Positions 18,814 to 45,962 of a stretch of 64,000 nt of DNA are shown here, piece by piece. Within the stretch, counting starts at the first letter, position 1; the number at the start of each line of letters is the position of its first letter. The DNA comes from Candidatus Hermodarchaeum yapensis (GTDB lineage Archaea > Asgardarchaeota > Hermodarchaeia > Hermodarchaeales > Hermodarchaeaceae). A program made the translations under genes and the position numbers. Location: contig JAEOSK010000009.1 in the NCBI GenBank assembly GCA_016840405.1, positions 26,808 to 90,807 of the forward strand. Direction: 5' to 3'. The notes beneath the pieces are model-generated. The model was not told where the DNA came from. It saw only the letters and a list, made by a program, of their open reading frames with translations, and made no database searches.

Positions 18814-19392
18814 ATGTTTAGTGTACCACGTAATCCAGTTGGCCTTGTGGATTATGCACTTCGTGCTCTCGGTAAAGATCATGTACCAATTCAACAGCTA
18901 GTATTCTTTCTTTCCTTTGATATCCGGCAGATGGCTCCTTCGCAGGCACTTAAACTTATTAAACGCCTTCAATCTGAAGGGCAGATAAGTATCGAAAACG
19001 GTTTGGTAAAAGTGTCTCATGAAATGGTGGTTGATACCGAAATCCCCACTCAGACAGCTTCAACAAATTTGGGTGAGCATCTACGATTATTTGTTAGCTC
19101 ATCCCGTTTATCTCGTGCAGTGGGAATGAACAATCAAGCCATTGAATTCATCCGCGTGTCTCAAAATCCATTGAAAGTGGAGGCCACGGTTCATGGATCT
19201 CAAGATTATATTCTCATCCTTGATGAAGCTAGCCGACGGATAGCTCATAATTGCCCTGACTGGCGAAAAGTCAGTTTGCTTCATCGATTCTGCAAACACG
19301 TGGCGAAATTATTCTTGATTTTAGAAAAGGAAGAATCTATTCGACTTCTCCAGTCGTTGCAGGTGGAATCGTGGGAATTCGAACAACTCTAA
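18814..19392 (+). CDS. SWIM-type zinc-finger protein
   Basis: HNCPDW...FCKH; start uncertain (18766 or 18814). Confidence 0.7.
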   Translation: MFSVPRNPVGLVDYALRALGKDHVPIQQLVFFLSFDIRQMAPSQALKLIKRLQSEGQISIENGLVKVSHEMVVDTEIPTQTASTNLGEHLRLFVSSSRLSRAVGMNNQAIEFIRVSQNPLKVEATVHGSQDYILILDEASRRIAHNCPDWRKVSLLHRFCKHVAKLFLILEKEESIRLLQSLQVESWEFEQL

Positions 19393-27595: not shown

Positions 27596-27692
27596 GCGGA
27601 GTTGGCGGAGCGGTAACGCGCTGGACTCGAGATGACCGAGTCATCCAGTGACCTTCGTGGTCGCAAGGGTTCAAATCCCTTACTCCGCGCCA
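27596..27692 (+). tRNA. tRNA-Ser(CGA) with 11-nt intron (27632-27642)
   Basis: Long variable arm; CTGGA-CTCGAG|intron|A-TCCAG; encoded CCA. Confidence 0.92.
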
Positions 27693-37169: not shown

Positions 37170-37275
37170 TGGTGCGGCTTCCGGGAATTTCGGTGACTGC
37201 ATAAAGCAGGTCGTGCTTTCGAACCCGGGTCTCAGGCGTGGGAGGCCTGGGTCATAACCACTAGACCAAAGCCGC
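37170..37275 (-). tRNA. tRNA-Gly(CCC) with 31-nt T-loop intron (37187-37217)
   Basis: CAGGC-CTCCCAC-GCCTG; BHB TTCG/CGAA at position 59/60. Confidence 0.9.
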
Positions 37276-40242: not shown

Positions 40243-43200
40243 CTAACTCGCTTCTATCGATGCAAATTCCTTAGTAATTTCAGTTTGTAGATTTTGGAAG
40301 TATTGTGCCATTGAATCAGGTTGGTCGTGCGGCTGGACTTTCATTCGTGCAATTTTCCCTACAACAGGGAGAGCGATTATCCGTCGTAGAGGGACGCCTT
40401 CATCAATGGCTTTTTGCATTTGTTCCCAGAATTCCATGATAATCTTTAGCATCCAGTAGCTTTTCTGTTCGGGGCAATATGTGTCCACTGGGTGAAGTGC
40501 TGACTGCATAAGGTAATCTTCTTTCACCATACGAGCTGCCTCCAGAATAGCGCGTTCACGTTCTGGCAAAGCATCGGGACCCACGAGTTGGACAATTTCA
40601 CGAAGTTCCTTGTCACGTTGAAGAATTGATAGGGCTTCCTCAGTCAGCTCAGGCCAATCATCGCCCATCTTTCCTTGATACCAAGATGCTAACTCATCTT
40701 TGTACAATGAATAGCTCTGCAAGTAATTAATTGCAGGGAAGAATCGCCTTGATGCCATATCCTTATCCAATGCCCAGAAAACCTTTGTAATTCGTAGAGT
40801 TGATTGAGTTACGGGCTCAGAGAAGTCTCCTCCTGCCGGTGAAACAGCTCCAGTAACTGTAACACTTCCAATACGAGGTTCGGTTCCTAGTGTTTCCACA
40901 CGTCCCGCTCTTTCGTAGAATTCAGCCAATCGACTACCAAGATAGGCAGGATAACCTTCTTCTCCTGGCATTTCTTCTAATCGTCCTGAAATTTCACGTA
41001 AGGCTTCTGCCCATCGTGAAGTACTATCCGCCATTAGAGCAACATCGTAACCTTGATCTCTGAAATATTCGGCAAGGGTAATTCCAGTATAAATTGATGC
41101 TTCACGGGCCGCAACAGGCATGTTACTCGTATTGGCTACAAGAAGCGTCCTTTCCATAAGCGATTTCCCGCTCTTAGGATCTTTCAACTTAGGAAAGTCT
41201 TCCAAGACTTCCGTCATCTCGTTTCCGCGTTCCCCACAGCCAACATACACAATAATATCTGCGTCTGCCCATTTAGCAAGCTGATGAAGAGTAACAGTGT
41301 TATGAAGTGTGAAGGGAAGAATTCCACCTACAAAATTATGAGTTTTTTCCACTGTGATATCAAAAACTGGAGTATCTGCTTCGTCGATTTGTATTTGTTT
41401 AATTCGATCAAAATTGACGTGTTCAACGGCATCTACAATTTTTTGGAGTCTTTCCCTGGTTTTTTCGGTGATTTTAGTTTCATGTGAGTCTATTATCTCA
41501 AGGATACGTTGAAGTGAGTCTGTAGAAGGTATTTCGCCTTTTTTCGTATAATTGTCTAAACGAATACCTTGGGTCTTCCTGAAAACATCGTGATCATTTG
41601 GAGTTTTTCCCTCTGTTTTAAGAGTAAGTAATAGTTGTTTGTTAACAGGAACTGTGTCTAAGCCAATGAAGTGTACAATTTCTTGTGCTGCATATTCATG
41701 TAATCGTTGGATTTTGGTATAGGGATATACTCCCTTTGCCTTCAGTTGCTTTGAAATAACTTCTGCAAATTTCCCATTTATTTCAATAATAAATGAGTTA
41801 TTTTTTGGTCTAGCTCGATATATCAGGCCAAGTCGAGTTAAGAGGTAGCCAACATCGCTGTGTAGTTGAGGACTAATAGTACCTAGTTGGAGAGAATATT
41901 TCGAGAAATGTCCATCACCAGCAATATATCCCGCTAGAAAGTGAACGAAATAATCTTCTGGTGCCTTTCGAATGCACGTAGGAACTCGAACGGTAGCGGT
42001 TTTATTATATTCCGGAAGACCAAGGGAGAGTAAGAATTTCTTGAAAGCAGTGTTTCGAATATATGCATATGGTGTTCGATTAGGTGAATCTTGATCAATT
42101 ATTGGTTCGGAATCAAATATGATTAAGGATAGTTCTTTGAAACGATCTAAAATTTGAGGAGAAGAATTGTAAAGATAAATGCCTTGATATTTTCCTTTGA
42201 AGTGTCCATCGGCTACAAACAATCCAAGCCATTCCGCTAATTCCTTGGTAAGTTTATTAGGGATGCAAAAGGGTTCTGAACCTCTTTCTGCTTTAACCAA
42301 AGTAACAGGTATTCGTTGTTTACCTGCAAATTTAACCAAGTCATCGAGAAACTTGAGTGTGGGGTTATTTCTTCCAATCTTATAAGCAATGAGAACATCG
42401 TAAGAAATTTTTAATTTCCCTGACAGAGCTTTTAGTGTCATTTGTTCTTGGAGATCTTGAATTAGCTCTTGCATTTGTTGTATGGCTTTTGAATCAGCAA
42501 CACGCAAAGAGAGATCAATCTCGTAAGGGTCAAATTGTGGTATTTGCCCAGGAACGTTTAATTTTCTAGGCACTACGAGGTAATCACCTACATTTAGTTG
42601 CTGAGATTCAACTTCTTCAATTATTTCACCGTTGAATCGGAAGAGCTTGTGTACTGGTGTTACATTCACAGTTCGTCCAGTACGAGTAGTAATTTTGACG
42701 ATTGTTGGAGTATTTCCTCTGTATATGTGAGTTGCTTTAGCCGGAACATATTTTGTACCATCAAATGATAAAATTCGAAGAGGAGTTTTTAAACGAAGAA
42801 GCGTTTCATTTTCTGAATCCTGTTCGATGAATTCTCCTCTTCGTAGAAAGCGTTTGTATAAATCATGAATTGGGATGGTATCACCATCTGCGAGTAAAAC
42901 AGGAGTATCGCCAGTTACACATTTTCCTGTTCCGAATCCTCCGGGGATGGCTCCTGTTCCGCCTTTGGCGACTGGGAAGAATGAATCAATCACTCTTTGA
43001 CCAGTGAAAAGAGGAACCTCGGTGCCAATCTTGCTGGCATAAGGGCGTCCTATACGAACGGGCCATCTTTGAGTTAGAGTAAGATCCTGCTTTCCAGAAG
43101 GCGTTTGCACTTGTGCAATGCCATCTTTGATAGTGTAGTCTCCTGCATTGACAATGTGTGTTACTTTCCCTTGAATTCCTGGTGGGACCAAAATTTTGTG

Positions 43201-43647
43201 TAGAAATACGCTTGTCTCTTGGACAGTACCTAACACATCTCCTCCTGCCACAGAAGCGCCTTTTTCTACTGAGGGTTTAAACGGCCATTGCTTGTCAATG
43301 GGCAGTGGAGGTGCTGTTACACCTCGGGTAATGAAATCTCCCACTTGTTCCTTAATACTAGGCAGTGGTCGTTGGATACCGTCAAAAATGGAACCGACTA
43401 AACCAGGGCCAAGTTCAACATCAAGTGAAGTCCCTGTGGCAACTACTTTTTCACCAGGTTTCAGACCAGAGGTTTCTTCATAAACTTGTATGAAAGCTCG
43501 GTCACTGACGACACGATTAACTTCGCCAATTAATTCCTCTGAACCTACTCTGCAGACTTCAAACATGGTCACTCCAAGGAGACCATCAGCCTCAATTAGA
43601 GGTCCTGCAATTCGTTGAATAGTTCCAATTCGCGTTGTCATTCTCAA
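40243..43647 (-). CDS. atpA: A/V-type ATP synthase subunit A, intein-containing
   Basis: PGGFGTGK|intein|[24 protein letters not shown]. Confidence 0.96.
41299..42921 (-). mobile_element. Intein in the AtpA P-loop (541 aa) with LAGLIDADG domain
   Basis: CVTGDTPV...TLHN/T; LGLFVADG and [10 protein letters not shown]. Confidence 0.94.
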
Positions 43648-44063: not shown

Positions 44064-44813
44064 TCAAGTTTTTTCGTTAGGGGCATATTTTCCAAGGATT
44101 TGTAACTTTCGTAACATACCTTCAATTGATTCCATACGCGATACTGCTAGAGGAACTCTTTCTCTATTCGCGAGTTCAATAGCGAGATAATCCAGTTTTT
44201 CTACACCATGTAATACAAAAAGACTTGGTTTAAAATCGTCTTTGATCGTAATTAATGGGGAACGTCCTGTCGAGGCGTTTACGAGTATTAATGCCCGCTC
44301 TCCTGTTGATTCAAAGAGTTTTAGAAAACCGTTGCTTGACAAAACATCTAACGCCTTTGTGGTATCAACGACCACATACCCAAGCACCTCTCTATCTAAC
44401 GCCTCTTCACCTGCAACAACCTGCGCACGGATACTTTCAAGCAGAGCCGTTGCGCTCACACCTTGGTTAAACTCACGAATATCCAATATTATGCTGGTTG
44501 GAATGTCCACACCCATCAAGCGTTGAAAAGCATTGACTACCTGCCCACCGTTATGCTCATCCAAAGTAATGATGGTCTCAACAAAACGCTTTATGGTTTT
44601 AGTGCCTGGTGACTGGCGGCGACCACTCTCATAATCACTGATAACTGAAGGAGAAACCCCCAAGGATTCGGCCAATTGAATTTGGGGAATATGGAACATT
44701 TCTCTCCATTGCCTCATTACACGACCTGGCTGATCGGATAGGGATATTTCCCCAGCTATACGTCGAGCAAGACGTTGTCTGATCTGTGCCGCCACGGGCA
44801 TATCTATTCGCAT
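44064..44813 (-). CDS. Archaeal HTH transcriptional regulator (COG1709-like)
   Basis: IAGEISLS..MRQWRE..SPSVISDYESGRR; STGRSP. Confidence 0.85.
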   Translation of the reverse strand: MRIDMPVAAQIRQRLARRIAGEISLSDQPGRVMRQWREMFHIPQIQLAESLGVSPSVISDYESGRRQSPGTKTIKRFVETIITLDEHNGGQVVNAFQRLMGVDIPTSIILDIREFNQGVSATALLESIRAQVVAGEEALDREVLGYVVVDTTKALDVLSSNGFLKLFESTGERALILVNASTGRSPLITIKDDFKPSLFVLHGVEKLDYLAIELANRERVPLAVSRMESIEGMLRKLQILGKYAPNEKT

Positions 44814-44895
44814 CGTATCATAGTTTAAGTGCTTTACGCAAATTTACGCTAATTGACGAACTTTTTCTAAAAACGTCAACGTTCAAAAGGGTTAA

Positions 44896-45094
44896 TGGTG
44901 GGCCGACGGGGATTTTCCCCAGTTAGAAATTCTACCTGGCTTTGAACCCCGGATCTCACGGATTCCCGCCGAGAGTTCGTGTGAAACTCCTGGTCCCGAA
45001 CCGCGAATCTTTGGCGATCAAAGGAACTAGTTCCTTTTTCTATACCAAACTAGTCCGAGAAATCGAGTTCCCCGGGAATCTAGACCATCGACCC
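44896..45094 (-). tRNA. tRNA-Pro(CGG) with four introns
   Basis: Removing 45048-45077, 45010-45041, 44963-44994 and 44913-44940 gives a 77-nt cloverleaf with CCA. Confidence 0.85.
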
Positions 45095-45137
45095 AACGTG
45101 GCAGGATACAGGGAATTTCGGCTTAAAATGTTTCTTT

Positions 45138-45962
45138 TCAGCACGAGTTTTGTTGACGTAGTTGGCTGAGTTTTCCCAGCGGGGTTTGATCGAGCATGAA
45201 AATCTCAGCCTCTCTCATTGAGAGATATCGAAATATCGGTGTACCGGCTGGTTCCTTGGGTTTAGTGCGGTTTAAGACATGACCTTGAAGTAGGTCAAGA
45301 AATGCTGGCAAAATTAAGATTTTCATATTGAGAAGTTGTTGAATCCGTTCTTGCTCATTGGTGACTACTTCTTTTCCTATCCATGATTCAATTGCATCTA
45401 AAATTGTTGGTTGCCATTTGGTCCTAACCCAGACTTGATGAGTACGCATTCGTCCTTGAAGTGTAGGGCGTGCCAAAGTTGGGTGAATGTGGCCCATGAG
45501 AAGACTATCACAGGTCAATATTTCTGATGTGGGTTGGGCATGGCCGTGGAGAAGATAGACATGTTGGGAACGAAACTTAATTCGTAGACCCGAAGACGGG
45601 ATAATAGTTGTGTTGTCAGGAACGACTAATTCTAGATCTGCATCATGGTTACCACGGATTATGGTAATTGGCGATTGCTGTTGAGTCCTGTGTAATAGTT
45701 GTGCAACTTCGTGAAACTCTTGCCTAGAAAATTCTCTGATAGAATGCTTGAGATCACCCAAGATGATAACTTCACTTGGTTTGGTTGTCGAAACCAAGTT
45801 ATCGAAGTGCTGAATAATCCTGCTAGTTAGATTGGATGAGTACTGATCCTGTTTGAAGAGTGTGCGTTCATATCCGATGTGCAAATCTGCCACAACTAAA
45901 ATACGGCGTGAACCTTCCTGAAGAAGTAGAGCCGGCTCGTTTTTTATTAGTTCCAAATGCAT
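45138..45962 (-). CDS. Calcineurin-like metallophosphoesterase (Lhr-associated type)
   Basis: ADLHIG, GDLKH, GNHD, HGH, GHIHP. Confidence 0.88.
   Translation of the reverse strand: MHLELIKNEPALLLQEGSRRILVVADLHIGYERTLFKQDQYSSNLTSRIIQHFDNLVSTTKPSEVIILGDLKHSIREFSRQEFHEVAQLLHRTQQQSPITIIRGNHDADLELVVPDNTTIIPSSGLRIKFRSQHVYLLHGHAQPTSEILTCDSLLMGHIHPTLARPTLQGRMRTHQVWVRTKWQPTILDAIESWIGKEVVTNEQERIQQLLNMKILILPAFLDLLQGHVLNRTKPKEPAGTPIFRYLSMREAEIFMLDQTPLGKLSQLRQQNSC

Follow-up and report, generated by a model that had tools for sequence, protein, structure and literature searches.

A tRNA-Pro(CGG) gene in the Asgard class Hermodarchaeia predicted to carry four short introns and a 6-nt exon

Gene organization and spliced product

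The gene described here lies on the minus strand of the window (the whole 64,000-nt stretch of DNA analysed), where a 199-nt tRNA gene runs from 45094 to 44896 and ends in an encoded CCA; a CCA is encoded in 22 of the 23 tRNA genes of this genome among the Rfam matches listed. It is made up of five exons (17 + 6 + 15 + 22 + 17 nt) separated by introns of 30, 32, 32, and 28 nt, which in standard tRNA numbering fall at 17/17a, 22/23, 37/38, and 59/60, so that the D loop would hold two of the predicted introns and the T loop one, the remaining one occupying the canonical site in the anticodon loop. The coordinates of all these parts, together with those of a promoter-like element and of the first T-run behind the gene, are given in Table 1.

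When the four inserts are excised, a 77-nt sequence remains which ARAGORN recognizes from end to end as tRNA-Pro(cgg). The unspliced gene was called neither by ARAGORN nor by Rfam at its gathering threshold, while other tRNAs in the window were called. The spliced form has the features of a tRNA-Pro(CGG), with a 7-nt anticodon loop, UUCGGGU (anticodon CGG, U33, and G37), an acceptor stem of 7 bp (GGGUCGA/UCGGCCC) followed by A73, a T loop UUCAAAU, a D loop of 9 nt, and standard D and T arms, the D stem having a single mismatch (U13-U22).

Table 1. Parts of the interrupted tRNA-Pro(CGG) gene and its flanking signals (positions are those of the window).
Feature	Position	Strand	Description
Promoter-like element	45122..45139	-	purine-rich BRE-like stretch, then TATA-like CATTTTAAG at -28..-36
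Exon 1 (17 nt)	45078..45094	-	acceptor 5' strand, U8, G9, D-stem 5' strand, D loop through U17
Intron 1 (30 nt)	45048..45077	-	HBh' type, site 17/17a
Exon 2 (6 nt)	45042..45047	-	UGGUAU = U17a G18 G19 U20 A21 U22
Intron 2 (32 nt)	45010..45041	-	HBh' type, site 22/23
Exon 3 (15 nt)	44995..45009	-	G23-G37, incl. anticodon C34 G35 G36; invariant in 19/19 orthologs
Intron 3 (32 nt)	44963..44994	-	full hBHBh', canonical site 37/38
Exon 4 (22 nt)	44941..44962	-	U38-A59; anticodon-stem 3' strand, variable loop, T-stem 5' strand, most of T loop
Intron 4 (28 nt)	44913..44940	-	relaxed BHB, T-loop site 59/60
Exon 5 (17 nt)	44896..44912	-	U60, T-stem 3' strand, acceptor 3' strand, A73, CCA (44896-44898)
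First T-run	44885..44888	-	8-11 nt past CCA; likely terminator

Comparison within the class

The gene was compared across 19 species-level genomes of the class, all of one family and divided into two genera (g1 and g2), and it is present in every one of them. Since atpA is found 1–2 kb from the gene in both genera, the copies are considered orthologs. Within g1, the genus to which the window belongs, the complete set of four introns, with unchanged sites, is found in 11 of 14 relatives, and the other three (G001, G007, and G011) are without intron 1. Introns 2 and 4 are restricted to this genus, as none of the four orthologs in the sister genus has either of them. One of these four has only intron 1 (L018, from genome G015), two have only intron 3 (L016 and L017, from genomes G017 and G018), and the fourth (L019) has no intron and scores 55.9 bits as an Rfam tRNA. 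Once freed of its own single intron, each of L016, L017, and L018 matches the predicted 77-nt product letter for letter, and five positions are different in L019. This graded series of orthologs fixes the exon boundaries with no recourse to the splicing motif.

Throughout the 19 genomes the exons, exon 1 among them, are near-invariant, whereas the introns fall to about 50% identity and keep their helices. In the alignment of the 19 sequences, 92.7% of the cells are paired under the structure with four motifs, compared to 39–49% in slid registers. Both sides have changed in 19 pairs, most of them within the inner hairpins that belong to introns 1, 3, and 4; the genomes are related and hence non-independent samples, yet the pattern leaves no ambiguity. 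None of 500 shuffles reached the observed values of pairing and covariation. This agreement among orthologs, pairing, and shuffle test is far beyond what chance could produce.

Structure of the splice junctions

The archaeal bulge-helix-bulge (BHB) motif consists of a central helix of 4 bp and two bulges of 3 nt on opposite strands, with cutting after the second nucleotide of each bulge. In the substrates of EndA, exon nucleotides -6 to -3 pair with intron nucleotides -6 to -3. This register fits all four junctions at exactly the boundaries of the first-pass annotation, with central helices CUAG/CUAG (4/4), UGGU/GCCA (4/4), UUCG/CGGG (4/4), and UUCA/GGAA (3/4) for introns 1 to 4, respectively. 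Alternative cut positions that would give an identical product pair far worse. An inner hairpin (h') sits immediately behind each central helix, and compensatory changes are seen in this hairpin in all four introns. The outer helix (h) is provided by the anticodon stem in the case of intron 3 and by the T stem in the case of intron 4.

In intron 1, whose central helix takes its 5' strand from CUAG at nt 12–15 of exon 1, the inner hairpin has 7 bp, five of which show compensatory changes. For intron 2 the 5' strand is formed by the first four nucleotides of exon 2, UGGU, which pair 4/4 with GCCA, ACCA, GCUA, ACUA, or GCCG in 15 of 15 copies; all helix variants preserve pairing, and the two basal base pairs covary. 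Covariation affects four of the seven inner pairs of intron 3 and six of the eight of intron 4. The mismatch of the last central helix, at A57, is found in 14 of the 15 copies of intron 4, and the one from G008 pairs 4/4.

A point against the proposed structure is that, when the 199-nt precursor is folded globally, the minimum-energy result (-77.5 kcal/mol) differs from the structure with all BHB motifs (-60.0 kcal/mol, or -67.1 when the helices are enforced) and is without motifs 1 and 3. Motifs 1 and 2 do appear in local folds. Intron 4 has only three of four central pairs, and its helix is absent from the predicted local fold. A shorter intron 2 of 29 nt, which was preferred by our tRNA census (see below) and would give a 12-nt D loop, was rejected, as it is contradicted by the orthologs without intron 2.

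The first-pass annotation had proposed a tRNA-Pro with anticodon CGG, interrupted by four introns with a BHB-like helix at each junction and including a 6-nt exon, and this description holds. The identity of the tRNA is borne out by the ARAGORN call on the spliced 77 nt and by the identical contiguous sequence in the sister genus, and the number, sites, and lengths of the introns by the agreement between the BHB register and the intron-lacking orthologs, in which the small exon UGGUAU runs on uninterrupted into its neighbors. The boundaries of intron 1, which had been flagged as the least certain, are now fixed by the CUAG/CUAG pairing, invariant across 13 of 13 copies, and by the relatives that lack this intron.

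Expression signals and splicing enzymes

Upstream of the gene, the purine-rich stretch and CATTTTAAG at -28 to -43 are kept at a fixed distance in 15 of 15 g1 orthologs, and the counterpart in g2, GAAAGAyTTAAGA, is related and found at a similar distance. T-runs follow the CCA in most orthologs. Between the promoter-like element and the gene (window 45101–45111, minus-strand -7 to -17) there is also a block, CTGTATCCTGC, which is conserved across g1 despite the variable spacer surrounding it and could act as a promoter-proximal or initiator element. The idea that this block assists the folding of the precursor was dropped, its duplexes with the precursor being no better than those of shuffled leaders; the best leader/precursor duplexes fall at different places in different species.

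Two EndA paralogues of 186 and 198 aa, each with the domains PF01974 and PF02778, are encoded in the genome. As read from their sequences, the 186-aa form retains the catalytic His context and the 198-aa form does not, and such a predicted pair fits the (alpha-beta)2 architecture. RtcB is encoded as well. The RtcB matches are split between C74:10768-11895 (+), covering profile positions 1–365 in a 427-aa frame, and C61:3858-4367 (-), covering positions 263–426 in a 171-aa frame, and they could reflect a pair of paralogues, a gene that is interrupted, or a break in the assembly. No second Pro(CGG)-like gene was found in the assembly, and "only copy" is to be read as true of the assembly alone because this is a MAG with a completeness of 86%.

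Taken together, the single copy, the promoter-like element, and the enzymes point to a working gene, with EndA predicted to cut its transcript four times and RtcB to rejoin the pieces. We are highly confident in this reading, i.e., in a functional, independently transcribed tRNA-Pro(CGG) with a 199-nt precursor containing four short BHB introns that would be removed by EndA and the exons joined by RtcB. In each intron a 4-nt strand would pair with the last-but-two four nucleotides of the upstream exon and, together with the hairpin of the intron itself, would place the two cut sites within 3-nt bulges accessible to a two-subunit EndA of the (alpha-beta)2 type, after which RtcB would join the exons. 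The actual cutting and joining, as well as their order, are what we infer from these sequence features.

Order of splicing and alternative readings

The two D-loop introns are separated only by the exon UGGUAU, which provides G18 and G19 of the D loop. Their motifs overlap by one nucleotide, U17a, which is at the same time the third nucleotide of the 3' bulge of intron 1 and part of the first pair of the motif-2 helix. In an unconstrained local fold (nt 8–92) both helices and both hairpins form side by side. The 3' bulges UU and AA can pair here and lengthen the second helix to 6 bp, a pairing taken as incidental because other species, with UA, CA, or CC at these positions, are without it. Once intron 1 is removed, motif 2 acquires an outer helix of 3 bp made entirely of invariant exon sequence; in the relatives without intron 1 this outer helix has only 1 bp.

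Ordered splicing, which the first-pass annotation had suggested from the adjacent D-loop motifs, gains plausibility from their common nucleotide U17a. An obligatory order, in which the motif of one D-loop intron becomes usable only after the other intron has been cut out and its exons ligated, is entertained here as a tentative alternative to independent removal. Such an order would agree with the better motif 2 left by the excision of intron 1 and with the description of closely spaced introns, of which one must go first, in the tRNAscan-SE 2.0 paper (PMC8450103). In addition, four simultaneous cuts in the D loop would free a hexamer, a reasoning that favors processing one intron at a time. 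However, both motifs coexist in the local minimum-energy fold, relaxed motifs are reported to be accepted by (alpha-beta)2 EndA (PMC4033280), and the relatives without intron 1 have intron 2 in spite of an outer helix of 1 bp. That the U17a overlap could by itself force EndA to act on one intron and await ligation before it turns to the other, we regard as rather unlikely. If true, this would be a safeguard tethering the 6-nt exon, and RNA structure would set the order of splicing in a tRNA spliced by proteins.

Whatever the order, the reading of a functional gene with four introns has to be weighed against that of a decaying or non-functional one, in which the insertions are tolerated since tRNA-Pro(UGG) can read CCG by wobble. 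A Pro(UGG) gene does exist (contig C11), the unspliced Pro(CGG) gene is missed by the standard finders, and in two metatranscriptome contig sets the coverage at the locus is limited to 44700–44806, stopping within the neighboring HTH gene. Yet decay is very improbable when exons stay near-invariant in 19 genomes next to introns whose identity has dropped to about 50% amid compensatory changes, when the promoter-like element is conserved, when introns have been lost exactly, so that the mature sequence is restored, and when no other copy of Pro(CGG) is present in the assembly. In the DNA runs, no joints were detected at the locus and no intron-less allele was seen.

Least credible of all is a composite or nested insertion of 68 nt that includes the 6-nt piece and would leave a gene of truly three introns: the motifs do abut, with U17a common to both, and the paired UU/AA bulges extend the second helix, but this pairing varies between species, removal as a unit would delete U17a–U22 with G18 and G19, which are contiguous in the intron-lacking orthologs, and intron 2 occurs without intron 1 in G001, G007, and G011 and intron 1 without intron 2 in G015. 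Excision of the first two insertions as one unit, the outcome that the first-pass annotation had named as fatal to its proposal, is therefore excluded, because each insert is found alone in relatives and the exon is required.

Intron history

A tree was built from the extein parts of AtpA (596 columns; a single marker, with several weak nodes and no outgroup), in which the two genera are strongly separated and the three-intron genes (G001 with G007, and G011) are nested within clades of four-intron genes. From this topology, the four introns appear to have been present at the base of the genus g1, with at least two later, exact losses of intron 1. For the sister genus the simplest reading would be differential loss of introns 1 and 3. 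One family thus displays the same gene with zero, one (of two kinds), three, and four introns, an unusually clean natural series that shows precise intron loss.

The four introns have no further copies in the genome and no resemblance to one another. In other species, intron 2 does not preserve the string ACUAGUU that introns 1 and 2 share in this gene.

The neighboring atpA gene is itself interrupted. AtpA, the catalytic subunit of the A-type ATPase (window 40243-43647, minus strand, 1134 aa), contains an intein of about 540 aa with a LAGLIDADG domain (Pfam Intein_splicing and LAGLIDADG_3, residues ~246–783), and the atpA of most relatives encodes about 600 aa and is intein-free. The insert is found also in G010, G007, and G006, with stop codons in the G006 match.

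Comparison with known interrupted tRNA genes

Three introns are given as the maximum per archaeal tRNA in reviews up to 2021 (PMC4033280; PMC8450103). The remark of the first-pass annotation that three is the usual maximum is correct for that literature but has been outdated by Valentin-Alvarado et al. (2024, Nat Commun, PMC11291895) and by a preprint of October 2026 (bioRxiv 10.64898/2026.10.13.758758). In the former, 92–95% of the tRNA genes of Atabeyarchaeia and Freyarchaeia bear introns, and four-intron Asgard tRNAs are tabulated, among them the Arg(TCT) and Ile2(CAT) of Freyarchaeia with four introns called and four curated (PMC11291895 Supplementary Data 4). In the preprint, three Asgard families are credited with 2.2 intervening sequences per gene; it also reports a maximum of five in an Asgard gene, D-arm inserts systematically missed by tRNAscan-SE, and two EndA paralogues with (alpha-beta)2 architecture in most Asgard genomes (bioRxiv 10.64898/2026.10.13.758758). 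The Pro(CGG) gene is a fresh example and not a record for intron number, and the known maximum is left unchanged. It combines an Asgard host, at least two introns with the D arm included, and absence from the output of tRNA finders, the marks of a heavily interrupted Asgard tRNA gene, and it extends such genes to another Asgard class, Hermodarchaeia.

The closest likeness is to the genes of Freyarchaeia and Atabeyarchaeia (PMC11291895), with which it shares an Asgard host, four short introns per gene, non-canonical sites in the D and T arms, and introns missed by automatic callers. The micro-exons there measure 7–9 nt by the tabulated coordinates, whereas the shortest one here has 6 nt. The Hermodarchaeia case differs also in class, in the tRNA that bears four introns, and in a genome that is less interrupted overall. 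In the three Freyarchaeia/Atabeyarchaeia genomes of that study Pro(CGG) has one intron (PMC11291895), which in Freyarchaeia and Atabeyarchaeia-2 starts near D-loop positions 17–18, as judged by tabulated coordinates only. With the census of the preprint our gene has in common D-arm inserts missed by annotators, canonical BHB boundaries, a genome with two EndA paralogues, and little copying of introns between genes (here likewise without extra copies). The focal families of that census are Freyrarchaeaceae, Jordiarchaeaceae, and Atabeyarchaeaceae, and Hermodarchaeia are absent from its text. The preprint stresses repeated gains, whereas at the Pro(CGG) locus an ancestor with four introns would mainly have undergone precise losses.

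Thermoproteales (Sugahara et al., 2007, 2008) are also similar in having non-canonical BHB introns, an (alpha-beta)2 EndA, and neighboring introns at short distance, one of which may need to be removed first (PMC4033280; PMC8450103). Their stated maximum is three introns, and related introns recur across different tRNAs by transposition, unlike what is seen here. As described in abstracts, a eukaryotic nuclear tRNA gene with three introns likewise has BHB-type introns in three different arms but no abutting pair of D-loop introns like the one reported here.

For annotation, the gene is another essential tRNA wholly missed by ARAGORN and Rfam. The locus would be well suited for tests of (alpha-beta)2 EndA and RtcB on abutting motifs and a 6-nt exon.

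Other interrupted tRNA genes in the genome

The census of tRNA genes in this genome was carried out in a SPLITS-like manner, going back from each encoded CCA, jumping BHB-compatible introns, and enforcing cloverleaf constraints; its counts are lower bounds, some real genes being missed. It gave about 40 credible tRNA genes, with no intron in 12, one in 19, two in at least six, and three in His(GTG) and Phe(GAA), so that the average is roughly one intron per gene (also a lower bound). Calls with four to six "introns" of 50–130 nt were discarded for their low scores and their lack of ARAGORN support.

The genome probably has a second four-intron gene, a predicted Leu(CAA) of 187 nt (C77 minus, reverse-strand coordinates 2597-2783) with introns of 22, 30, 21, and 26 nt. 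Two of its sites are 8/9 and 59/60, and it is uncertain where exactly the two middle introns begin and end. Its spliced form is an 88-nt class II tRNA accepted by ARAGORN, and the central helices pair 4/4, 3/4, 3/4, and 4/4.

The Pro(GGG) and Pro(UGG) genes are present with two introns each. In Pro(GGG) (C24 minus, reverse-strand coordinates 19079-19214) there is an intron at 17/17a with the same CUAG/CUAG central helix as in Pro(CGG) and an unrelated hairpin. The single introns of the published Pro(CGG) genes of Freyarchaeia and Atabeyarchaeia-2 start close to this point too, by the tabulated coordinates, and 17/17a may be a favored or ancient intron site.

Two more tRNA genes of the window deserve mention. 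One is a tRNA-Gly(CCC) at 37170-37275 (minus strand) with one 31-nt intron according to the census; its spliced form is accepted by ARAGORN, and unspliced it was reported in the window by neither ARAGORN nor Rfam. The other, at 27596-27692 (plus strand), is labeled tRNA-Leu(gag) by ARAGORN and becomes a class II tRNA-Ser(CGA) after subtraction of an 11-nt intron, for which reason the Leu(gag) label looks artefactual.

Elsewhere in the assembly, three genes pass the test of T arm, acceptor, and CCA and were left unsolved by the census: a 184-nt interrupted gene with a long insert in the anticodon region and a T-loop intron (C36:7588-7771, +), a probable Gln(TTG) with two introns (C68:5824-5960, +), and a Val(CAC) whose intron falls outside the BHB criteria of the census (C51:5719-5825, +). 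Finally, position 33 of tRNAs is almost universally U, and a tRNA-Arg(TCT) at C73:59310-59383 (+), matched by Rfam with 65.8 bits, has C33 in its anticodon loop (CCUCUAA).
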